Shown here: positions 19,650-61,843 of the stretch, piece by piece
How positions within the stretch are numbered: position 1 is the first letter of the stretch
Layout of the letters: each line of letters starts with the position of its first letter
Assembly: GCA_022394775.1 (NCBI GenBank)
Contig: JAGFCB010000014.1
Span: 7,715 to 71,714, forward strand
DNA from: Candidatus Poribacteria bacterium
Lineage (GTDB): Bacteria; Poribacteria; WGA-4E; WGA-3G
Length of the DNA: 64,000 nt
Reading direction: 5' to 3'
The notes under the pieces: model-generated
Told to the model about the DNA's origin: nothing
Seen by the model: only the letters and a program-made list of their open reading frames with translations
The model's database searches: none
Program-made: the position numbers and the translations under genes

Positions 19650-19740
19650 GTTCTACGGAAAGGAACCTCAAGGTTCAAACCCACTTCATCGAACCGCAAG
19701 GAAAATTAAAAAAACGAACCGCAAGGAAATTAAAAAACAA
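19650..19740 (+). promoter_or_regulatory. Conserved 5' leader module: TACGGAAAGG, about 30 nt, then two tandem copies of GAACCGCAAGGAAA(A)TTAAAAAA abutting the hppA start
   Basis: The same module is seen at 38675-38742 (ilvN) and 39288-39378 (ilvC). Confidence 0.6.
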
Positions 19741-22127: not shown

Positions 22128-22655
22128 ATGGAGATGAACATGAAAATAAAAAACGTCATTATATATGCCTTGGGTGTATCTATCTTTTTCATCGGATGTC
22201 AACAGTTAGACAACCAGGTGAAGATAGGACTCGATGATCCTGTATCTGTTTCTGTGGATGACGTTAATCCAGACGAAATATTTTACACAGGCACTGTTTT
22301 CATTGGCGACGCCGGAAATAGGTTCGGAACCGACGAATATGCCTTAAATTCCGCTACTATCACAGACGATACACTGAATATCAGTGTATCCTACAGCGGT
22401 GGATGTGAAGAACATCAATTCACACTCGTTGCTTCGGATGCGTTTCTCGAATCATTCCCCGTTCAACTGTCCGCTTCTCTCGCACACAATGCTAACGGCG
22501 ACACATGCGAAGCCTATCCAACGGAAAACTATCGTTTCGATCTTACGCCAATCAAGACAATGTATCAAGAGGCTTACCGACAGGAAGCTGGCACCGTCGT
22601 TTTACAACTCAAAGATGCACCAGATGGGGAACTGGTCTACGAATTTACAATGTAA
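22128..22655 (+). CDS. Hypothetical lipoprotein
   Basis: MEMNMKIKNVIIYALGVSIFFIGC lipobox signal. The 22056 start in the ORF track overlaps the hppA 3' end. Confidence 0.5.
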   Translation: MEMNMKIKNVIIYALGVSIFFIGCQQLDNQVKIGLDDPVSVSVDDVNPDEIFYTGTVFIGDAGNRFGTDEYALNSATITDDTLNISVSYSGGCEEHQFTLVASDAFLESFPVQLSASLAHNANGDTCEAYPTENYRFDLTPIKTMYQEAYRQEAGTVVLQLKDAPDGELVYEFTM

Positions 22656-22658
22656 TAG

Positions 22659-22748
22659 AACTTACGCATCCCCATTGCTGGCGGGGTTTGAAACCCCGCC
22701 AGCAGTGCGTAATACATAGGTTATCGTAGAAAGATGCGTAAGTTCTGG
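22659..22748. repeat. MITE/REP-like element, second core type: degenerate TIRs CTTACGCATCC / GATGCGTAAGTTC around the palindrome CTGGCGGGGTTTGAAACCCCGCCAG
   Basis: Perfect 11-bp stem palindrome at 22677-22701. Same architecture as the element at 61749-61843. Confidence 0.65.
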
Positions 22749-22841
22749 GAACTGCGATCTCTAAATTTCGGCGTTGTCGGGAAACCGGTTTTCCATGCCT
22801 CCGCCTTCTGCTTGTTTGCTAATTTGTAGGAGAAAAAAGAA

Positions 22842-24521
22842 ATGTCCAATAAGTTGAAACCCCGAAGTTATGCGATCACCGACGGACCCGACCGCGCCGC
22901 TGCTCGGACAATGCTCATGTTCGGCGATGGCGGGCTTTCACCTGAAGACCTTGACAAACCAATTATCGGGGTTGCCAATACATGGATTGAAATCGGTCCC
23001 TGTAACTTCCACTTAAGAAGACTTGCTGCCAAAGTCAAAGAAGGCATCCGTGCTGCAGGTGGAACGCCTCTTGAATTCAATACTGTCAGCATCTCTGATG
23101 GTATCACTATGGGCACCGAGGGCATGAAAACCTCGCTAATCAGCCGAGAGATCATCGCCGATTCGATTGAGTTGGTTTCCATCGGTAACATGTTTGATGC
23201 TGTCGTTGCCCTCTGTGGATGCGACAAGACCGTCCCCGGTACCGTCATGGCATTGGCACGGTTAGATATTCCGTCTCTTACGCTTTACGGTGGTTCAATC
23301 ATGCCGGGCAACTTTCAAGGACGCGATGTCACGATCCAAGATGTATTTGAAGCAGTCGGACAGCACGCTGAAGGTACAATAACGGTCGAGGAACTTGATG
23401 ACCTCATTAGCAAAGGGTGTCCGGGCCCCGGGGCATGCGGTGGACAATTTACCGCCAACACCATGGCAACAGCCGTTGAAATGTTAGGTATCGCTCCGAT
23501 GGGAAGTGGTAGCGTTCCGGCTGTCGTGGAAGAAAAGGACGATGAGGCATACAAAGCCGGACAACTCGTCATGGATATGCTTGCTGCTGACCGACGACCG
23601 AGCCAAATTATTACCCGTAAGTCGCTTGAGAACGCGATTACCTCTGTCGCCGCTACCGGTGGCTCTACCAACGGCGTTCTGCATCTCCTCGCTATCGCAC
23701 ACGAAGCACAGGTCCCGATAACAATTGAGGATTTCCACACGATTAGCCAGAGAACACCAGTCCTTGCTGATCTTAAACCCGGTGGTCAGTTTGTTGCCAA
23801 CGACCTTTATGAGGCGGGCGGCATCCCGTTCTTGGCAAAACGCTTGGCAGAAGCTGGACTGCTCCATACCGACGAACTCACTGTCACAGGCAATACCATC
23901 GGTGAAGAGGCAAATGCAGCCGTTGAGACAGATGGGCAAAAGGTCGTCAGACCCGTAGATTTACCGCTCAAACCGACCGGCGGATTTGCGATCTTGAGGG
24001 GTAATCTCTCACCAGAAGGTTGTGTCATCAAGTTAGCAGGACAGGAAAAAACGCTCCATCGCGGTCCCGCACGGATCTTTGAACGTGAGGAAGACACCTT
24101 CGCCGCCATTAAGGACGGCGAGATTAAACCGGGTGATGTTGTCGTTATCCGTTATGAGGGACCCACCGGTGGTCCCGGTATGCGTGAGATGTTAGGTGTA
24201 ACGGCAGCACTCGTCGGCGCGGGTTTAAGTGAGGATGTCGCGCTCTTGACCGACGGTAGATTCTCTGGGGCAACGCACGGCTTCATGATCTGTCACGTCG
24301 CACCTGAAGCAGCTAGAGGCGGTCCCATCGCTATCCTCCAAGAAGGTGACGAAATCGTCATTGACGCAAAGGAACGAAAACTTGACGTTCAACTCTCCGA
24401 CGCTGAAATCCAAGCACGTTTTGAGCAGTGGACACCCCCTGAACCGCGTTATGCACGCGGTGTCATGGCGAAATATGCAAACGCCGTCTCCTCCGCCTCC
24501 GAAGGTGCTGTGACAGGATAA
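22842..24521 (+). CDS. ilvD: Dihydroxy-acid dehydratase
   Basis: CDKTVPG Fe-S ligand motif; IlvD/EDD family layout. Confidence 0.95.
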   Translation: MSNKLKPRSYAITDGPDRAAARTMLMFGDGGLSPEDLDKPIIGVANTWIEIGPCNFHLRRLAAKVKEGIRAAGGTPLEFNTVSISDGITMGTEGMKTSLISREIIADSIELVSIGNMFDAVVALCGCDKTVPGTVMALARLDIPSLTLYGGSIMPGNFQGRDVTIQDVFEAVGQHAEGTITVEELDDLISKGCPGPGACGGQFTANTMATAVEMLGIAPMGSGSVPAVVEEKDDEAYKAGQLVMDMLAADRRPSQIITRKSLENAITSVAATGGSTNGVLHLLAIAHEAQVPITIEDFHTISQRTPVLADLKPGGQFVANDLYEAGGIPFLAKRLAEAGLLHTDELTVTGNTIGEEANAAVETDGQKVVRPVDLPLKPTGGFAILRGNLSPEGCVIKLAGQEKTLHRGPARIFEREEDTFAAIKDGEIKPGDVVVIRYEGPTGGPGMREMLGVTAALVGAGLSEDVALLTDGRFSGATHGFMICHVAPEAARGGPIAILQEGDEIVIDAKERKLDVQLSDAEIQARFEQWTPPEPRYARGVMAKYANAVSSASEGAVTG

Positions 24522-30440: not shown

Positions 30441-32336
30441 ATGAGCACATTTTACGTCACCACCCCTATCTACTACGTGAATGGCGAACCGCATGCAGGA
30501 CACGCCTATACCACTATCATCGCTGATGTTTTGGCGCGTTATCACCGTATCAAAGGCGATGAGGTGTTCTTCCTGACTGGCGTTGATGAACACGGGGCAA
30601 ACATACATAAAGCCGCTGAGAACGCAGGACTTGCTCCACAAGACTATTGCAATAAAATGGCACCTACGTTTACAAAACTTTGGGAACGGTTGAATATCTC
30701 GCACGACATCTTCATGCGGACAACAAGCGATATGCACAAAAGCGGCGCGGAGAAATTCCTCACCGCCCTCTATGATAGTGGCGATGTCTATAAAGGTTCT
30801 TATGAGGGGCATTATTGCCGACCGTGCGAGCGGTTTGTCCCTGAAAAAGAGTTGACGGACGAAAAGATCTGCCCGATTCATAAATTGCCTTTGGAATGGC
30901 TCGAAGAGGAAAACTACTTCTTTAGACTTTCTAAGTATCAAGATCGCTTACTCACACATTTTCACGAGAATCCCGACTTTGTCTACCCCGCAGCTCGACG
31001 CAATGAACTTTTGAGCGTACTTGATTCCGGATTGGAAGACATAAGCATATCTCGCTCCTCTGTTTCATGGGGAATTTCCTTACCCTTTGATCGCGAGCAT
31101 ATCGTCTATGTCTGGATTGAAGCGTTAATGAACTATATGACAGCACTCGGTTATGAAACCGATGATAAGCAGTACCGTACTTTTTGGCCCGCTGATGTCC
31201 ACATGATGGCAAAGGATATCTCCCGTTTTCACGCGCTGATCTGGCCCGCAATGCTAATGGCTGTTAACTTGCCACTTCCAAAACAGGTTGTTGCGCACGG
31301 TTGGCTGACGAAGGACGGCGAAGCATTGAGCAAAACGCGAGGCATTGCCATTGATATGGACACGGACATTGATACCTACGGATTGGATACATTCCGTTAT
31401 TATCTTCTGCGCGAATTTAGTTTCGGAAACGATGGTGATTATCGTCCTACCCGTTTGCATGCACGCTACAACGCTGATCTCGCGAACGACCTCGGCAATC
31501 TGCTCAATCGCGTCCTCGGTTTACTCAACAAGAACTTTGAGGCAATTCCTCCACCGACAACGCCCGGGGAATTCGACGACGAAATCAAGGAAATGGCACA
31601 GACGACGGTAGATAAATTAGATGCGCATATAAACGCATTCGCGTTTGATGCTGCATTGGAGACTATCTGGGAATTTGTGCGACGCATCAATCGGTATATC
31701 CAACAGACCCAAGTCTGGACGCTCGCGAAGCCAGAGACGAAGCCGAGAATGGGAACGATCCTGTACAATAGTTTAGAAGCACTCCGCGTCATCTCTGTGT
31801 TGATTGCCCCCTTTATTCCGGAAACTGCTCAGAAAATTCAGAAACAGATCGGTTTATCCGAATTTGATACCGCCGCAGAGTGGGGACGCTTACCTGTAGA
31901 TATTGCCGTTAGCAGAGGTGAACCCATCTTCCCGCGGGTTGATACAAAAGATCAGAAACAGGCACGACCTGAAAAAGCAGCGAAGCCGAAGCCGAAGACG
32001 GCAAAGCAAACAACCGACTTAGTCTCCTTCGCGGATTTCCAAAAGTTGGATCTTCGGGTCGCGCGTATTCTCACTGCTGAACCCATTGAAGGTGCGGACC
32101 GACTCCTCAAGTTGCAAGTAGACCTCGGTACTGAGAAACGGCAAGTCGTCGCAGGGATTGCCGAACACTATACCTCTGAAACCCTCGTAGGCAAACAGAT
32201 AATCATCGTCGCGAATCTTGAACCCGCAACTATCCGTGGTGTCGAATCACACGGTATGATTCTCGCAGGCAGCGCGGACGCTGTAGTTTTAGCGACCCTT
32301 GAAACCGAAATGCCCCTCGGCACACAGGTAAGGTAG
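30441..32336 (+). CDS. metG: Methionine--tRNA ligase with C-terminal EMAP/Trbp111-type tRNA-binding domain
   Basis: HIGH region PIYYVNGEPHAGHAY; KMSKS-type ALSKTRG; C-terminal LDLRVARIL...GADRLLKLQVDLG. Confidence 0.95.
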   Translation: MSTFYVTTPIYYVNGEPHAGHAYTTIIADVLARYHRIKGDEVFFLTGVDEHGANIHKAAENAGLAPQDYCNKMAPTFTKLWERLNISHDIFMRTTSDMHKSGAEKFLTALYDSGDVYKGSYEGHYCRPCERFVPEKELTDEKICPIHKLPLEWLEEENYFFRLSKYQDRLLTHFHENPDFVYPAARRNELLSVLDSGLEDISISRSSVSWGISLPFDREHIVYVWIEALMNYMTALGYETDDKQYRTFWPADVHMMAKDISRFHALIWPAMLMAVNLPLPKQVVAHGWLTKDGEALSKTRGIAIDMDTDIDTYGLDTFRYYLLREFSFGNDGDYRPTRLHARYNADLANDLGNLLNRVLGLLNKNFEAIPPPTTPGEFDDEIKEMAQTTVDKLDAHINAFAFDAALETIWEFVRRINRYIQQTQVWTLAKPETKPRMGTILYNSLEALRVISVLIAPFIPETAQKIQKQIGLSEFDTAAEWGRLPVDIAVSRGEPIFPRVDTKDQKQARPEKAAKPKPKTAKQTTDLVSFADFQKLDLRVARILTAEPIEGADRLLKLQVDLGTEKRQVVAGIAEHYTSETLVGKQIIIVANLEPATIRGVESHGMILAGSADAVVLATLETEMPLGTQVR

Positions 32337-35552: not shown

Positions 35553-36158
35553 ATGGCACACACATTACCAGCGCTCCCTTACGCGCACGATGCTTTGGCA
35601 CCTCACATCGGTGCTGATACGATGGAAATTCATCACGGCAAACACCATCAAGGCTACGTCAATAATCTTAACGCTGCTTTAGAAGGACTCGGTGCCCTCG
35701 CCGATATGGATGTTCACGAACTCCTCCAGAATCTTGACCAGGTTCCAGAAGACAAGCGTCAAGCCGTCATTAACAACGGTGGCGGACACGCCAATCATTC
35801 ACTCTTTTGGTCCATTATGAGCCCTAACGGTGGCGAGCCCGGCGGTGAAATCGCAGCAGCGATAACCTCCACCTTTGGGTCACTTGAGGCTGCAAATGAA
35901 GCGTTCACGACTGCAGCCGCCACACGTTTCGGATCCGGTTGGGCATGGCTCGTCCTCGGCGACAACGGCTTGGAAATCTACTCCACCGCAAATCAGGACA
36001 GCCCGATTATGCAGGGGCATACCCCACTTCTCGGAATTGATGTCTGGGAACACGCATACTATCTCAACTACCAGAATCGCCGTCCAGATTACATTGAAGC
36101 TTGGAAGAATGTCATCAACTGGTCACGGGTTAACGAGCTCTACGTAGCGAACGCTTAA
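35553..36158 (+). CDS. sodA: Superoxide dismutase [Fe/Mn]
   Basis: [14 protein letters not shown]; DVWEHAYY. Confidence 0.95.
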
Positions 36159-36272
36159 CGTCCATATAACTTTTGGGTGTCGTAGGGGTAGGTCTGAGCA
36201 GCATTTCAAACCTACCCTCTACTTCCCAAAACAGCATTTGTCCGCTCAAATTACCTACCGGATTAAAATTTC

Positions 36273-36301
36273 TTGACATCTCTCTTTAAATGTGTTATAC
36301 T
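36273..36301 (+). promoter_or_regulatory. Sigma70-like promoter TTGACA, 17 nt spacer, TATACT driving the T-box leader and ilvBNC
   Basis: -35 at 36273-36278 and -10 at 36296-36301. Confidence 0.5.
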
Positions 36302-36399
36302 TAAAATGTAAATATAATTTAGCACGCCCTGAAACTTCATAAAACGGGGTGCGTAATTAACATTTAAATAGATTACCAAAAAAGCGTTGAAAGGGAGGA

Positions 36400-36706
36400 G
36401 TAAGTCGTCCGGGCTTGCGAGAGATGGAAACTCACCGGCTGAAAGGTTTCCTCAAGTTCCCTCGACTGAAGGTCGCCCTGGAGCTGCTAATCTGAACAAT
36501 TGTAGGTGCGAGTTTCGCTCGCGACAGGTAGGATTGGTCGGTGTGATGCCCGTTATCGCATCCCAAAGAGTGCTCTTTCTCATTGTAGGCGGGCTTTGTA
36601 AGCCCGATACCTCCAATAAAAATGGGAAGAGAATTGGAGTGGTACCACGGTAAGGCAAGTGTAATGCCCTTCTCGTCTCCATGTTTGGAACGAGAAGGTT
36701 TTTTTA
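36400..36706 (+). ncRNA. T-box riboswitch leader with intrinsic terminator, upstream of ilvB
   Basis: T-box sequence AATTGGAGTGGTACCACGG at 36632-36650 (consensus AAUUAGGGUGGUACCGCG). F-box CCGTTA at 36549-36554. GA-rich GCGAGAGATGG near the 5' end. Terminator CCTTCTCGT..ACGAGAAGG plus T7 at 36668-36705. Confidence 0.75.
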
Positions 36707-36890
36707 ATTTCACTCCTTTGACCTGCGTACCTGTTGTTCATTTTCTCCGTTGTCGAAAAATCGGGCTTGTTTCAGTTTATATGAGTGTTTGCTCAGCACG
36801 CCTTAGAAGGGTATTGAACTGAACCTAAACCCGTTTTGAACAACGAACAAAACGGTCAAAAACTGAATCTTTAAAAAAAGGAAAATTGGC

Positions 36891-38567
36891 ATGGAACTTT
36901 CAGGAGCACAAATCCTGGTTGATGGTCTCAAGCGGGAAGGTGTCGAATATATCTTCGGTGTCAACGGTGGCGCAGCGATGCCGATTTTCGATGCTCTGTA
37001 CGGCGAGACCGAAGTTAAATTAATTCCGATGCGGCATGAACAAGGGGCTTCCCACGCCGCTGATGGCTACGCGCGCGCCACAGGGAAAGTCGGCGTTGCA
37101 CTCGCAACCTCCGGTCCCGGCGCGACCAACCTCGTCACTGGTATCGCTACTGCCTATATGGATTCTATTCCGATGGTCGCGATTACTGGACAGGTTTTTA
37201 CTCACTATATTGGCAGTGATGCATTCCAAGAATGTGATGTTATTGGCGTAACGCGTCCGATTTGTAAGCACAGTTACCTCATTAAAAGCAGTGACGAAAT
37301 CGCGGATGTTGTCGCTGAAGCGTTTCACATCGCAAAAACTGGGAAACCGGGACCTGTTATCATTGATATCGCCAAAGATGCCCAGAACAATGAAGCACTG
37401 TTTCAGTATCCAGAAACGGTTGACATCCGCAGCTACAAACCCCAAGTTCATGGCGACCCAGGACAAATTGCAAAGGCAGCGGCACTAATTAAAGAAGCCA
37501 AACGTCCCATGCTTTATGCCGGTGGCGGTGTTGTCCTTGCGAATGCCAGCGAAGAACTACGGCAGCTGACTTTGAATACACAAATCCCGATTACTGTCAC
37601 TCTGATGGGGCTTGGTGCGTTCCCTGAGACGCATCCGTTGGCGATGGAGATGCCCGGTATGCACGGCTCTTGTTGCGCAAATTACGCCTTCACCGATTCA
37701 GACCTTGTTATCGCTGTGGGTTCGAGATTCGACGACCGCGTTACAGGTGATCTCAGTAAATTCGCACCTAACGCCAAAAAGATCCACATTGATATTGATG
37801 CGTCTTGTATCGGGAAAAATGTCCCTGTAGATGTCCCCATCGTCGGCGATGCGAAAAGCGTCCTAACGGAGCTCAACAAACAGGTGAGCACTGCGGATAT
37901 CGACCCATGGCGCGCTCAAATTCAGGAGTGGAAACAGAAATATCCGTTTGAATACGAGCAAAAATCGGATGTTGTTATGCCGCAATACGTTATTGAGAAA
38001 ATATATGAGCATTACAGTGATGCCATTGTTGTTGCGGATGTCGGGCAGCACCAGATGTGGGCGGCGCAATACTTCAAATTTACTGAACCTCGACAGTGGC
38101 TCAATTCTGGCGGTCTCGGCACGATGGGCTTTAGCCTCCCTGCCGCAATTGGTGCACAACTCGGATGCCCGGACAAAACCGTCGTCAACATCAACGGGGA
38201 CGGCTCCTATATCATGACGATCCAAGAACTGGTGCCAGCAGTTACGATGAAGCTGCCACTTAAGGTCTTTATCATCAACAATATGTACTTAGGGATGGTG
38301 CGTCAATGGCAGGAACTGTTCCACGGCAAACGCTACTCCGCTGTTGATTATCACGACAACCCTGATTTCGCCTTGCTCGCGCAAGCATTCGGTGCCACAG
38401 GTTTGCGGGTCGAACACCCCGACGACGTTGAACCGGCATTGCAGAAGGCAAAAGGGATTACCGACGGTCCTGTCGTCATTGACTTCATTGTTGATGAAGA
38501 GGAGAACGTGTTCCCAATGGTACCAGCAGGTGCCGGACTTGGAGATGTTATCCGCGGGTTATCTTAA
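36891..38567 (+). CDS. ilvB: Acetolactate synthase large subunit (biosynthetic)
   Basis: TPP-binding GDGSYIM...NN motif; FAD-binding core. Confidence 0.95.
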   Translation: MELSGAQILVDGLKREGVEYIFGVNGGAAMPIFDALYGETEVKLIPMRHEQGASHAADGYARATGKVGVALATSGPGATNLVTGIATAYMDSIPMVAITGQVFTHYIGSDAFQECDVIGVTRPICKHSYLIKSSDEIADVVAEAFHIAKTGKPGPVIIDIAKDAQNNEALFQYPETVDIRSYKPQVHGDPGQIAKAAALIKEAKRPMLYAGGGVVLANASEELRQLTLNTQIPITVTLMGLGAFPETHPLAMEMPGMHGSCCANYAFTDSDLVIAVGSRFDDRVTGDLSKFAPNAKKIHIDIDASCIGKNVPVDVPIVGDAKSVLTELNKQVSTADIDPWRAQIQEWKQKYPFEYEQKSDVVMPQYVIEKIYEHYSDAIVVADVGQHQMWAAQYFKFTEPRQWLNSGGLGTMGFSLPAAIGAQLGCPDKTVVNINGDGSYIMTIQELVPAVTMKLPLKVFIINNMYLGMVRQWQELFHGKRYSAVDYHDNPDFALLAQAFGATGLRVEHPDDVEPALQKAKGITDGPVVIDFIVDEEENVFPMVPAGAGLGDVIRGLS

Positions 38568-38674: not shown

Positions 38675-38742
38675 ACGGATATACGGAAAGGCACGGTGAG
38701 TGCCCAACCCCCCCTGACTTAACCGCAAGGTAAAATTAAAAA
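38675..38742 (+). promoter_or_regulatory. Conserved leader module (ATACGGAAAGG ... AACCGCAAGGTAAAATTAAAAA) abutting the ilvN ATG
   Basis: Same module as at 19650 and 39288. Confidence 0.6.
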
Positions 38743-39243
38743 ATGAATCCAGAAGAACGACATATCTTTTCCGTTTTAGTCGAAAACCGATTCGGAGTCC
38801 TCGCCCGTGTTGCAGGACTTTTCAGCGGGCGCGGCTTTAATATCGACAGTCTTAACGTCGCCGAGACGCATGACAAAAGCATTTCCCAGATAACCCTTGT
38901 CACGCACGGGGACGCACAGATCATTGAACAGATCTATCACCATTTAAACAGACTCATTGACGTTATTGAGGTGACCGACCTCTCCACCGCTGGAACGCAT
39001 GTTGAGCGAGAACTTGTCCTTATCAAGATCGCTACCGATGATCCTCAAAAACGTACCGAGGTTCTACAAGTCGCGGAAGTCTTCCGAGGGCGGGTTATAG
39101 ATATGAAGCCTGCCTCACTTGTCCTTGAAGTTACAGGGGATGAAGGGAAATTGAAAGCGGCGATTGATGTTTTCAATACGTACGGTATCCTTGAGTTAGC
39201 ACGCACCGGCAAAATAGCGATGCTGCGTGGATCTGAAAAATAA
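38743..39243 (+). CDS. ilvN: Acetolactate synthase small (regulatory) subunit
   Basis: ACT domain RHIFSVLVENRFGVLARVAGLFSGRGFNIDSL. Confidence 0.95.
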   Translation: MNPEERHIFSVLVENRFGVLARVAGLFSGRGFNIDSLNVAETHDKSISQITLVTHGDAQIIEQIYHHLNRLIDVIEVTDLSTAGTHVERELVLIKIATDDPQKRTEVLQVAEVFRGRVIDMKPASLVLEVTGDEGKLKAAIDVFNTYGILELARTGKIAMLRGSEK

Positions 39244-39287: not shown

Positions 39288-39378
39288 GGATATACGGAGA
39301 GAACTGTTTTTCCATACAAGGCTCCTGAACGAACCGCAAGGAAATACAAAAAGACGAACCGCAAGGAAATATAAAAAT
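39288..39378 (+). promoter_or_regulatory. Conserved leader module (TATACGGAGAG ... 2x GAACCGCAAGGAAATA(C/T)AAAAA) abutting the ilvC ATG
   Basis: Tandem duplication of the 22-nt unit, as seen upstream of hppA. Confidence 0.6.
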
Positions 39379-40371
39379 ATGGCAACGATTTATTACGAGA
39401 GTGATGCTAATTTTGATTTACTGAAAGAACGCACCGTCGCTGTTGTTGGCTACGGAGCACAAGGACGCGCACAGTCGCTAAACCTCAAAGACAGCGGGGC
39501 AAACGTGATTGTCGCATTATACGAAGGCAGCCCTTCAAAAGCCCGCGCAGAGGCAGAAGGCTTGAGCGTCAAGAACGTTGAAGAAGCCGCAGCAATGGCC
39601 GATATTGTTCAGGTACTCATACCTGATGAACGCCATGCAGCCGTCTATCGTGACCAGATCGCCCCGAATATGGAAGCAGGCAATATGCTGCTTGTCTCAC
39701 ACGGGTTTAGTGTCCATTTTGGGCAGATTGTACCCGCCAGCGATATTGATGTCGCAATGATTGCACCGAAAGGCCCCGGATCCCTCGTTCGTGAAGTGTT
39801 TGAAGGCGGTGGCGGCGTGCCGTGTCTTATCGCTATCCATCAAGATACGACGGGTCTCGCACGCGATGTCGCACTCGCTTATGCGAAAGGCATCGGCGGC
39901 ACGCGCTCAGGGGTCATCGAAACCACGTTCCGTGAGGAAACCGAAACAGATCTCTTCGGTGAACAAGCTGTCCTGTGCGGTGGAACCGCTGCACTCATCA
40001 AAGCCGCCTTCGATACACTTGTTGAAGCCGGTTACCAACCAGAGATGGCTTACTTTGAGTGTCTCCATGAGCTCAAGTTGATTGTTGATCTAATTTACGC
40101 CGGCGGGTTAAGCAAAATGCGGAATGATATTAGCAATACTGCCGAATTCGGGGATCTCACACGTGGTCCGCAGATTATTGACGACGGTATCCGAGATAAA
40201 ATGCGCCAAATCTTGAAGGATGTGCAGGAAGGTGTTTTTGCACGGGAGTGGGTCTTGGAAAACGAGGCGAATCAACCCGTACTCAGCGCACTCCGCCGAC
40301 AGGAAGCAGAACTCCAGATTGAAGAGGTTGGCAAAAATCTGCGTAGCATGATGAGTTGGCTTGACGAATAA
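39379..40371 (+). CDS. ilvC: Ketol-acid reductoisomerase
   Basis: [23 protein letters not shown] motif; class I KARI length. Confidence 0.95.
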
Positions 40372-60077: not shown

Positions 60078-61715
60078 ATGAAAGCCTCAGAACTCACCGT
60101 AAAATGCTTAGAAAACGAAAACGTTGACTATATTTTCGGGATACCAGGCGAAGAAAACCTGGATCTCATGGATGCCTTATTGGAATCCGAAATTCAATTT
60201 ATTCAGACGCGCGACGAACGCGGTGCTGCCTTCATGGCAGATGTCTATGGGCGGCTCACTGGACGCGCAGGTGTGTGTCTCGCGACGCTTGGTCCTGGTG
60301 CGATGAACCTTGTCACGGGAGTTGCTGATGCCAATATGGATAGGGCACCTCTCGTTGCGATTACTGGACAAGCCAGTCTGGACAGGATGCACAAGGAATC
60401 GCATCAATACATGGATGTCGTCTCTGTTTTCAAACCGATGACAAAATGGAATACGCTCCTCCATCTACCTGAAATCATCCCCGAATCAATAAGCAAAGCC
60501 TTCAAAATCGCAACAGGCGAAAAGCCTGGGGCTACCCACATCGATTTTCCTGAAGATGTCGCAAAAATACAAATCGACGCAGAACCTATTCCACACGACT
60601 TTCCGAGTGAAGCAGAACCTATCGCCTCTTGTTTACAACGTGCTGCACAACTGATTAACGACGCGAAACAACCCATTATTCTCGCAGGGAACGGTGTCAT
60701 CCGACAAAACGCCTCTCGAATGCTAACCCAATTCGCAGAAATGACCAATATCCCGGTGGCGCATACCTTTATGGGTAAAGGGAGCATCCCTTGGACGCAT
60801 CGCCTTTCGCTTTTAAGTGTCGGCTTGCAAGCAAACGATTTTGTCTCCTGCGGGTTTGATCGCGCCGACCTCGTTATTGCTATCGGTTACGATATTGTCG
60901 AATACCACCCACGCCTCTGGAACCCGAATCGAGATAAGAAACTCATCCATATTGACACACAACCGAGTGAAAGTGATGCTTCTTACGTCACTGATGTGGA
61001 AATGGTCGGCAACATCCGCCAAAGTCTCAGACACCTCATGGCACAAGAAATTTATCCCAAAGATGCGGAGTATGCCTCAAACACTTTAAGGAAAATCATA
61101 CTTGATCAACTTGAAGAACATCGCGATGACGCAGATTTTCCGATGAAACCACAAAAAGTTTTAAGCGATGTCCGTTCTGTACTCGCCGATGATGATATTC
61201 TCATTTCCGATGTCGGCGCACATAAAATGTGGATTGCACGCATGTATCCGTGCGCTCAACCCAATACATGCATCATCTCCAATGGATTCGCCGCCATGGG
61301 GATCGCACTCCCCGGGGCTTTCGTCGCCAAACTTATCTATCCAGAGCGTAAATGTTTGGCTGTCTGCGGCGATGGTGGGTTCATGATGAACTCTCAAGAA
61401 CTCGAAACCGCTGTCCGAACAGAAGTGCCTTTTGTTACCCTTATCTTCAATGATGAGGCTTATGGACTCATTGAATGGAAGCAGATGAATGGCTTTGGTA
61501 GACCCGCACACATTGATTTCACGAATCCTGATTTCGTCAAGTACGCCGAAGCCTTCGGCGCCAAAGGTTATAGAGTTGAAGGCAGCGACGAACTCGTTCC
61601 TATACTCAAAGATGCGTTCAACCAAAAGGTTCCTTCAGTCATTGATTGCCCTGTCAACTACGCAGAAAACCTACGCTTGACGAACGAACTCGGACAACTG
61701 ACATGTCCCATTTAA
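60078..61715 (+). CDS. Acetolactate synthase, catabolic-type (AlsS-like TPP enzyme)
   Basis: N-terminus VDYIFGIPGEENLDLMDAL...RDERGAAFMADVYGRLTGRAGVCLATLGPGAMNLVTGVADA; TPP motif GDGGFMMNSQE. Confidence 0.75.
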   Translation: MKASELTVKCLENENVDYIFGIPGEENLDLMDALLESEIQFIQTRDERGAAFMADVYGRLTGRAGVCLATLGPGAMNLVTGVADANMDRAPLVAITGQASLDRMHKESHQYMDVVSVFKPMTKWNTLLHLPEIIPESISKAFKIATGEKPGATHIDFPEDVAKIQIDAEPIPHDFPSEAEPIASCLQRAAQLINDAKQPIILAGNGVIRQNASRMLTQFAEMTNIPVAHTFMGKGSIPWTHRLSLLSVGLQANDFVSCGFDRADLVIAIGYDIVEYHPRLWNPNRDKKLIHIDTQPSESDASYVTDVEMVGNIRQSLRHLMAQEIYPKDAEYASNTLRKIILDQLEEHRDDADFPMKPQKVLSDVRSVLADDDILISDVGAHKMWIARMYPCAQPNTCIISNGFAAMGIALPGAFVAKLIYPERKCLAVCGDGGFMMNSQELETAVRTEVPFVTLIFNDEAYGLIEWKQMNGFGRPAHIDFTNPDFVKYAEAFGAKGYRVEGSDELVPILKDAFNQKVPSVIDCPVNYAENLRLTNELGQLTCPI

Positions 61716-61748: not shown

Positions 61749-61843
61749 CTTAGGACTTACGCGTTTTTCTATGATAATCTACATATTATGTCCTGCTGGC
61801 TGGGTTTGAAACCCCGCCAGCGCGGAGGGCTGCGTAAGTCCTA
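61749..61843. repeat. MITE/REP-like element with TIRs TTAGGACTTACGCG / GCGTAAGTCCTAC and palindromic core CTGGCTGGGTTTGAAACCCCGCCAG
   Basis: Same TIR as 444 and 29028; same core as 22677. Confidence 0.75.

Follow-up and report, generated by a model that had tools for sequence, protein, structure and literature searches.

A probable valine-specific T-box riboswitch ahead of the ilvBNC operon in Candidatus Poribacteria

Introduction

T-box riboswitches are seen as a hallmark of the Firmicutes, and the question of an ancient origin versus a spread by transfer is unsettled. The control of an ilv operon by a T-box is classic in Bacillus, where the leader of ilvBNC-leuABCD (ilv-leu) in Bacillus subtilis senses tRNA-Leu (PMC12452182), as the original prediction discussed below had stated. 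In the published surveys, T-boxes outside the Firmicutes are sporadic: they are recorded in Actinobacteria, Chloroflexi and Deinococcus-Thermus, and in a small number of Deltaproteobacteria (Geobacter/Pelobacter) (PMC2494555, PMC3766115). A Trp T-box on a trpB-like gene has been described in Dehalococcoides, a member of the Chloroflexi (PMC2494555). The 2008 survey reported no T-box in a single Planctomycetes genome or in 7 Bacteroidetes/Chlorobi genomes (PMC2494555). No paper linking T-boxes with Poribacteria was found, and the statements made here on the published distribution rest on two sources (PMC2494555, PMC3766115). Here, we describe the RNA leader located in front of the ilvB-ilvN-ilvC genes in a stretch of 64,000 nucleotides (nt) of contig JAGFCB010000014.1 from a Candidatus Poribacteria bacterium. 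This whole 64-kb stretch is called the window from here on, and all unlabelled positions refer to it. The original prediction, made from the letters of this stretch, had proposed that a T-box riboswitch controls the three genes in a genome that did not look like that of a Firmicute.

Results

A Complete T-Box Leader Precedes ilvBNC

The RNA ahead of ilvBNC is a complete T-box riboswitch, an ordinary member of the RF00230 family. When the whole window was compared with Rfam 15, this model was matched along its full length (1-219 of 219) with 95.8 bits and an E-value of 8.9e-20, above the gathering score of 93 bits. No second Rfam match was detected across the 64 kb, and further T-boxes were absent from the rest of the window, including the regions ahead of ilvD and metG (30441-32336), even at E<=1. 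The analysis establishes family membership, the fold with its covariation, the place and conservation of the specifier, a terminator and an antiterminator that exclude each other, the promoter, and the identities of the downstream genes. We consider it very probable that this T-box is a class I, transcription-attenuating element specific for tRNA-Val. The coordinates of the leader, of its substructures and of the regulated genes are collected in Table 1.

The original prediction had correctly recognized the presence of the element, but had set its start too far downstream, at position 36400. The true 5' end lies at ~36378-36383, and a start at 36400 would leave out the kink-turn (K-turn) together with the Specifier Loop's 5' strand. 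The motifs on which that prediction was built were all found at this locus: the GA-rich 5' motif (GTTGAAAGGGAGGAGTAAG, 36386-36404), the F-box CCGTTA (36550-36555), the T-box sequence (AATTGGAGTGGTACCACGG, 36632-36650, with TGGTACC at 36640-36646) and a terminator with arms CCTTCTCGT (36668-36676) and ACGAGAAGG (36690-36698) followed by T7 (36699-36705). The ATG of ilvB, at 36891, is placed 185 nt past this T tract, as had been stated.

Table 1. Positions of the T-box leader, its parts and the flanking features in the window
Feature	Position	Strand	Evidence
Sigma-70-type promoter TTGACA-17-TATACT, TG upstream of -10	36273..36301	+	11/12 matches
Extra 5' leader, ~65 nt, promoter to Stem I, lineage-specific	36302..36380	+	Leader comparison
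T-box leader RF00230 (Stem I, Stem II, IIA/B pseudoknot, Stem III, antiterminator)	36378..36683	+	Rfam
Stem I	36383..36485	+	Rfam alignment, covariation
Stem I K-turn	GUUGAA 36386-36391 / GGA 36480-36482	+	Rfam alignment
Specifier Loop S-turn	AGUA 36399-36402 / GAA 36468-36470	+	Rfam alignment
Stem I AG bulge AGAGA	36420-36424	+	Rfam alignment
Stem I distal loop	36433-36444	+	Rfam alignment
Specifier GUC (most likely)	36472..36474	+	TBDB rule and conservation
Stem II, loop with lineage-specific hairpin insertion GCGAG 36508-36512 / CUCGC 36518-36522	36486..36538	+	Covariation
Stem IIA/B pseudoknot with F-box CCGUUA (36550-36555)	36539..36562	+	Covariation
IIA	CGG 36539-41 / CCG 36550-52	+	97% paired
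IIB	GAUGC 36545-49 / GCAUC 36558-62	+	4/5 pairs compensatory, 97% paired
Stem III with lineage-specific hairpin insertion CGGGCUU-UGU-AAGCCCG (~36590-36620)	36573..36631	+	Covariation
T-box sequence and antiterminator	36632..36681	+	RNAalifold, window fold
Antiterminator helix A1	UGGAG 36635-39 / CUCCA 36677-81	+	
Antiterminator 7-nt bulge UGGUACC	36640-36646	+	
Antiterminator helix A2	ACGG.AAGG 36647-55 / CCUU.CUCGU 36668-76	+	
Intrinsic terminator, 13-bp hairpin with one bulge, then U7	36668..36705	+	RNAfold
Non-conserved spacer, terminator to ilvB start	36706..36890	+	Leader comparison
ilvB, acetolactate synthase large subunit, regulated gene 1	36891..38567	+	TIGR00118 798.6 bits (cut-off 538)
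ilvN, acetolactate synthase small subunit, regulated gene 2	38743..39243	+	NF008864 211 bits (cut-off 119)
ilvC, ketol-acid reductoisomerase, regulated gene 3	39379..40371	+	NF004017 533 bits (cut-off 336)

Conservation of the Leader in Related Genomes

A comparison with related bins had been proposed together with the original prediction, and the same leader was found in every related bin examined. The ilvB loci of relatives were fetched via nine IlvB proteins, 76-92% identical, and RF00230 was detected in all 12 of these loci, between sodA (or another gene) and ilvBNC, with scores of 74-110 bits. The leader of locus L001 reached 99.7 bits. Additionally, metagenome contigs were scanned for the exact T-box core GGAGTGGTACCRCGG..CTCGTCTCC, which yielded 33 loci; 25 of them precede an IlvB, mostly 75-98% identical to that of the window, and 13 of the metagenome pattern loci were confirmed above the RF00230 gathering score. 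The match in L116 was discarded as a chance occurrence inside a mutS-like coding sequence, and L125, with a Firmicute-like leader, a CUC specifier and an IlvB of 45% identity, was excluded from the leader set. Loci L106, L113 and L124 carry high-G+C leaders ahead of IlvB proteins ~61% identical to that of the window, the protein of L124 being called Candidatus Poribacteria by NCBI; the same high-G+C type of leader was found in L098, on a contig that ends before ilvB. Among the 27 relatives' leaders scanned with Rfam, 23 scored at least 93 bits and that of L092 scored 90.8 bits.

No T-boxes were found elsewhere within ~216 kb of Poribacteria loci. Furthermore, 39 non-Poribacteria ilvB loci among the matches listed were analyzed with Rfam, and a T-box was detected in Bacillus benzoevorans only. 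These loci included Geobacteraceae, Thermoflexus, Calditrichia, Armatimonadetes, Nitrospirota, Rhodothermales, Ignavibacteria, Thermoleophilia, Atribacteria, Paenibacillus and Peptococcaceae.

Two alignments were used for the comparative analysis. The first, A2, contained 12 leaders, namely those of the window, of L001 and of ten loci retrieved via the IlvB protein only. The second, A3, comprised 31 distinct Poribacteria ilvB leaders whose IlvB proteins are 61-98% identical, 19 of these leaders being pattern-derived.

The Specifier Codon

The Specifier Loop, whose location had been left to a folding of Stem I in the original prediction, was found by the Rfam alignment, RNAalifold and covariation. 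It is closed by AGGG (36392-95) and CCCU (36476-79), and its 3' strand (36468-36475) reads GAA-G-GUC-G. The TBDB rule counts back from the 3' end of the bulge and takes nt 2-4 as the specifier (PMC7778990). The specifier is most likely GUC (Val), and the sequence points to uncharged tRNA-Val as the molecule that the T-box most likely senses. In A3 the codon was GUC in 30 of the 31 leaders and AUC (Ile) in the other one, and the following base (G36475 in the window) was a purine throughout, G in 30 and A in one. The spacer base after GAA (G36471 in the window) varied among G, U, C and A. Since GUC and the purine are constant while the spacer varies, the register is settled. In other T-boxes with an identified downstream gene, this register yielded the amino acid to be expected, with AUG before metS (L094), UGG before trpB-like genes of Anaerolineales (L102, L108 and L114), CUC before the Firmicute-like ilvB of L125, and GUC-A in both tandem ilvB T-boxes of Bacillus benzoevorans. 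In TBDB a 3'-A or 3'-C is preferred in Val specifiers, and GUC ends in C. The amino acid also fits the target: valine is made via ilvBNC, and isoleucine, encoded by the variant AUC, is a product of the pathway too.

The AUC codon was found in L096 (6442-6695) and L097 (JYMV01000613.1 and JYMV01017556.1), which are identical over the aligned T-box stretch. A near-identical leader, L101 (890-1143), has GUC, so that the AUC/GUC pair differs within one metagenome project. This difference would represent a natural one-base switch between Val and Ile, as expected of a functional specifier.

The original prediction had tentatively looked for Leu or Ile codons (CTG, CTA and ATC) near 36490-36510, and a T-box with such a specifier (CUG, CUA or AUC) would resemble the ilv-leu leader of B. 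subtilis, which senses tRNA-Leu (PMC12452182). The CUC of the Firmicute-like metagenome leader L125 and the UGGU of the bulge, which also suits tRNA-Leu and tRNA-Ile (A73), would be in line with it. However, positions 36490-36510 lie inside Stem II, where 7/7 pairs covary, and outside the Specifier Loop; they vary among the leaders, in contrast to the GUC kept at the canonical place in 30/31. An AUC at that place was present in L096/L097 only, and not in the window. A Leu or Ile specifier is, on these grounds, very unlikely.

Another register would place a glycine codon, GGU, right behind the S-turn's GAA, an arrangement known from glyQS leaders. The bases following GAA in the window are indeed GGU (36471-36473), and the codon stands right behind GAA, with no spacer, in the Trp T-boxes L102/L108/L114. 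Nevertheless, the first base after GAA varies among the orthologous leaders, which would read GGU, UGU, CGU or AGU, and the next base would be a C rather than the conserved purine. Glycine is, moreover, unconnected with ilvBNC, and UGGU would face the U73 of bacterial tRNA-Gly. Bacterial tRNA-Val, tRNA-Ile and tRNA-Leu carry A73, the discriminator implied by UGGU in the bulge, and tRNA-Gly carries U73. We therefore give practically no credence to the glycine register and retain GUC as the specifier.

Stem Architecture and Covariation

RNAalifold on A2 predicted Stem I, Stem II, the IIA/B hairpin, Stem III and an antiterminator with the 7-nt bulge UGGUACC. In these 12 leaders, 59 pairs were 95.2% paired and 27 of them showed compensatory changes; this number was equalled in 0/500 shuffles and slid controls gave at most 9. 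With the IIA/B pseudoknot made explicit, the 31 leaders of A3 gave 62 pairs (95.7% paired), 40 of them compensatory, again equalled in 0/500 shuffles; the slid controls yielded 10-17 compensatory pairs and ~40-51% pairing. The strongest covariation was observed in Stem II, the pseudoknot stem IIB and Stem III.

The results given below for the single stems refer to A3. Helices 1-5 of Stem I were 87-100% paired, with 20 of 27 pairs compensatory. A K-turn, an S-turn in the Specifier Loop and a codon followed by a purine, by which membership is judged, were all found; these motifs were invariant and the helices flanking them covary. The AGAGA bulge and the distal GGCUG..A were invariant or nearly so, and together with the distal loop ..GGCUGAAA.. 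they align with AGAGA / GGUGaaA of the model; six of the eight pairs in the helix between them covary. A distal platform formed by the AG bulge and the distal loop, the predicted dock of the tRNA elbow, is present. In Stem II all 7 pairs were compensatory (96% paired) and the fold in the window reached -17 kcal/mol (z -2.2); in Stem III six of 7 pairs were compensatory, with a window fold of -20.5 kcal/mol (z -3.5).

Apart from the window, only L001, L092 and L110 have the hairpin inserted in the Stem II loop (36496-36530), and L093 has part of it. The Stem III insertion is present in the window, L092 (IlvB 92%), L093, L110 and L118, and absent from L001 (96%) and the more distant leaders. None of the three lineage-specific additions of the window (the 5' extension and the Stem II and Stem III hairpins) touches a conserved motif.

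The Expression Platform

The conserved T-box sequence reads AAUUGGAGUGGUACCACGG at 36632-36650, and its UGGU was invariant in A3, including the 12 protein-derived leaders. In the window the antiterminator (36635-36681) folds with -11.6 to -11.7 kcal/mol and leaves the 7-nt bulge unpaired. The terminator reaches -19.3 kcal/mol (z -6.4), with perfect 9-nt arms and no equally stable structure in 200 shuffles (0/200). Nucleotides 36668-36681 are common to both folds, the 3' strand of the antiterminator being the 5' arm of the terminator; terminator and antiterminator thus alternate around the UGGUACC bulge, an alternative pairing that the original prediction had suggested examining. A terminator hairpin and a U tract were present in all 12 leaders inspected. 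A simple terminator scan missed the hairpin of the window because its loop limit was 8 nt. In L081 (1678-1800), L090 (1842-1935) and L091 (1841-1935) the terminator loop gains an extra hairpin of 25-60 nt, and the arms and the U tract are kept.

T-boxes outside the Firmicutes, such as those of actinobacterial ileS, are often translational (PMC7778990), and a class II element of the Actinobacteria type would sequester the Shine-Dalgarno sequence of ilvB. The competing helix, however, is a G+C-rich hairpin followed by U7, likewise in 12/12 of the leaders inspected, and it is found ~50-315 nt from the start codon among the leaders. In the window it stands ~170 nt upstream of the likely Shine-Dalgarno sequence AAGGAAAA (~36877-36884). 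Stem I is, in addition, of full length and has a distal platform, unlike in class II leaders. A translational mechanism consequently has a very slim chance of applying here, and the transcription-attenuating class I reading is preferred.

Under this class I reading, the nascent leader, started at TTGACA-17-TATACT, would fold and Stem I would display GUC in the Specifier Loop. In a cell short of valine, tRNA-Val (anticodon GAC) that carries no amino acid would pair with GUC, and its elbow would stack on the distal platform of Stem I. The free A73-C-C-A end of this tRNA would then pair with UGGU in the bulge and stabilize the weak antiterminator (~-12 kcal/mol), and with the antiterminator held the RNA polymerase would read through into ilvB-ilvN-ilvC. 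In charged tRNA-Val, the amino acid would block the pairing of the acceptor end, so that the stronger terminator would form and transcription would stop at ~36705. We infer from the family the binding of the tRNA and the read-through, and also which tRNA-Val, with which discriminator base, is used in Poribacteria.

Observations That Weigh Against a Functional Val T-Box

Several observations count against this interpretation. The window leader exceeds the RF00230 gathering score by 2.8 bits only, and two lineages, represented by L086 and L087, fall below it with 74-76 bits. The invariance of the core in the pattern-found leaders (L093-L125) is partly by construction, the 12 protein-derived ones being likewise invariant. 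The single-sequence minimum free energy (MFE) structure, which recovers Stem II, Stem III, the antiterminator and the terminator, is not canonical in Stem I (z +1.1). Stem I is missed because it is built of non-canonical K-turn, S-turn and T-loop motifs; the MFE was, for the same reason, dropped as a test of this stem, whose support is comparative and comes from the covariance model and covariation. No tRNA genes were found by ARAGORN in the window or in 35 Poribacteria loci (13 + 22), and a tRNA-Val(GAC) with A73 in the host is therefore an assumption. Lastly, the unexplained 185-nt spacer before ilvB could hold an additional control element.

The narrow excess over the gathering score and the unremarkable MFE of Stem I, together with T-boxes being undocumented in Poribacteria, could be taken to indicate a decayed or coincidental T-box-like sequence next to a plain, tRNA-independent terminator. 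Against such decay, the leader has been retained before ilvB in lineages whose IlvB identities range between 98% and 61%; all stems carry compensatory changes, and the functional motifs left unpaired (AGAGA, GAA, GUC-purine, UGGUACC, the F-box and the distal loop) are invariant. The covariation of the stems and the invariance of the single-stranded motifs therefore indicate purifying selection on the RNA. Moreover, a constitutive terminator of -19.3 kcal/mol at this place would be harmful if no antitermination relieved it, the biosynthetic operon behind it being essential. Decay or coincidence is thus highly improbable, and a functional T-box remains the reading that we adopt.

Operon, Promoter and Host

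The identities of ilvB, ilvN and ilvC given in the original prediction were borne out by NCBIfam equivalogs. The three genes encode the steps common to valine, isoleucine and leucine synthesis. Upstream of the leader, sodA, an addB-like gene and metG were assigned with NCBIfam.

The TTGACA-17-TATACT promoter of the original prediction was found at 36273-36301 and is the sole promoter-like site within 35800-37200. TTGACA-17/18-TATACT (once TATAAT) was observed 14-90 nt ahead of the T-box in 23 of the 31 Poribacteria leaders, L001 included. The gap between the -10 hexamer and the T-box measures 79-90 nt in the window, L001, L093, L110 and L118, and 14-21 nt in most other Poribacteria. The distance from the 3' end of the T-box to the ilvB start ranges over ~50-315 nt among relatives, and this region is alignable only in its last ~17 nt. 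The spacer before ilvB gave no Rfam match, and within the window no second copy was detected of this 184-nt spacer (36707-36890), of the 5' extension or of the inserts in Stems II and III.

The IlvB of the window is an exact match of MCG9130279.1, from a Candidatus Poribacteria bacterium at NCBI, and is 96% identical to that of L001, from a metagenome-assembled genome titled Candidatus Poribacteria. The best 120 IlvB homologues (97-76% identity) belong to Poribacteria wherever named. A subtilase with a sorting domain of the type IX secretion system is also encoded in the window. The genome being that of a Candidatus Poribacteria, the premise of a non-Firmicute host was therefore right. In the NCBI taxonomy, Poribacteria are a candidate phylum comprising the classes Ento- and Pelagiporibacteria. 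The phylum has been discussed alongside the Planctomycetes-Verrucomicrobia-Chlamydiae (PVC) group.

Other Elements in the Window

The motif CGAACCGCAAGGAAA, with an A-rich run behind it, was found in five + strand copies (0.2 expected by chance), each just upstream of a start codon, at 19692-19729, 38721-38733 and 39332-39369. They are arranged as a tandem pair (25-nt period) before the gene of an H+-pyrophosphatase, one copy before ilvN and a tandem pair before ilvC, with GGnTnTACGGARAG ~40 nt upstream of each site. In L081, L082 and L084, ilvB and ilvN overlap, and in the window they are separated by 175 nt; this gap looks like an inserted element bringing its own Shine-Dalgarno-like AAGGA.

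A palindromic intergenic element of ~90 nt, which has the inverted repeats ACTTACGC...GCGTAAGT at its ends and encloses the hairpin CTGGCGGGGTTTGAAACCCCGCCAG, is present in two copies of opposite orientation, at 22655-22750 before ilvD and at 61750-61840 after the gene of a thiamine pyrophosphate (TPP) enzyme. L081 has a hairpin resembling that of this element, GGGACGGGTTTCAAACCCGCC, in the spacer that leads from the T-box terminator to ilvB.

The gene ilvD, encoding dihydroxy-acid dehydratase, is located at 22842-24521, 14 kb upstream of ilvBNC, with no Rfam element ahead. The TPP enzyme (60078-61715, 545 aa, Pfam TPP_enzyme_N/M/C) is a second member of the acetolactate synthase superfamily; its gene, 22 kb downstream of ilvB, is accompanied by neither a small subunit nor a T-box. 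T-box control in the window is limited to the ilvBNC part of the pathway.

Discussion

The point of note in this work is that the T-box is conserved across an entire candidate phylum, Poribacteria, which is not one of those in which T-boxes are usually found; the mechanism itself is not new. Poribacteria are an uncultivated phylum, mostly sponge symbionts and marine plankton, and they add a clean data point to the debate on the origin and spread of T-boxes. The 31 leaders form a compact comparative set, with rich covariation and a natural switch between Val and Ile. The leader is detected by a standard Rfam scan, and automated annotation could therefore flag it. The prediction that follows is that the charging of tRNA-Val would govern branched-chain amino acid synthesis in Poribacteria, which would be relevant to models of amino acid exchange between symbiont and host.

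As to its history, the T-box was found in every Poribacteria lineage examined, with IlvB identities from 98% to 61% and including the high-G+C leaders. An ancestral-type element, a single ilvBNC T-box inherited vertically that represents an independent old lineage outside Terrabacteria, maybe related to that of Chloroflexi, and that has undergone a switch from Val to Ile, is a proposal for which we see belief and doubt evenly balanced. On this view, nothing would point to the operon having recently been acquired from Firmicutes.

Among the described systems, the ilv-leu leader of B. subtilis, from the Bacillota, is likewise an RF00230 member with a terminator/antiterminator switch, placed directly before ilvB-ilvN-ilvC and made up of Stems I, II, IIA/B and III. 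Its specifier is Leu (PMC12452182), whereas that of Poribacteria is read as Val (GUC). The B. subtilis operon continues to leuABCD, and no leu genes stand directly behind ilvC in the Poribacteria operon; the window leader has, in addition, extra hairpins in the loops of Stems II and III and a longer 5' end.

The leuA T-box of a Gram-negative lineage poor in T-boxes has, as here, a target in branched-chain amino acid biosynthesis (PMC2494555, PMC3766115). The gene (leuA) and the specifier (Leu) differ, and it is likened to the Poribacteria leader by description only.

The T-boxes of the Anaerolineales (Chloroflexi) in L102/L108/L114 and the Poribacteria leaders have an identical core, GGAGUGGUACCRCGG...CUCGUCUCC. 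The Anaerolineales T-boxes differ in having UGG (Trp), no spacer after GAA and a trpB-like target, in contrast to the GUC, the spacer and the ilvB of Poribacteria. The common core of the Trp and Poribacteria T-boxes may hint at a relatedness of these two non-Firmicute groups.

Finally, the ilvB T-boxes of Bacillus benzoevorans DSM 5391 (L052) have GUC, UGGU and an ilvB target, all as in the window. They differ in being two in tandem (106 and 93.5 bits), in having A and not G as the purine after the codon, and in preceding an IlvB of ~53% identity. Judging from these leaders, a T-box control of ilvB that is predicted to be Val-specific is already present in Firmicutes.

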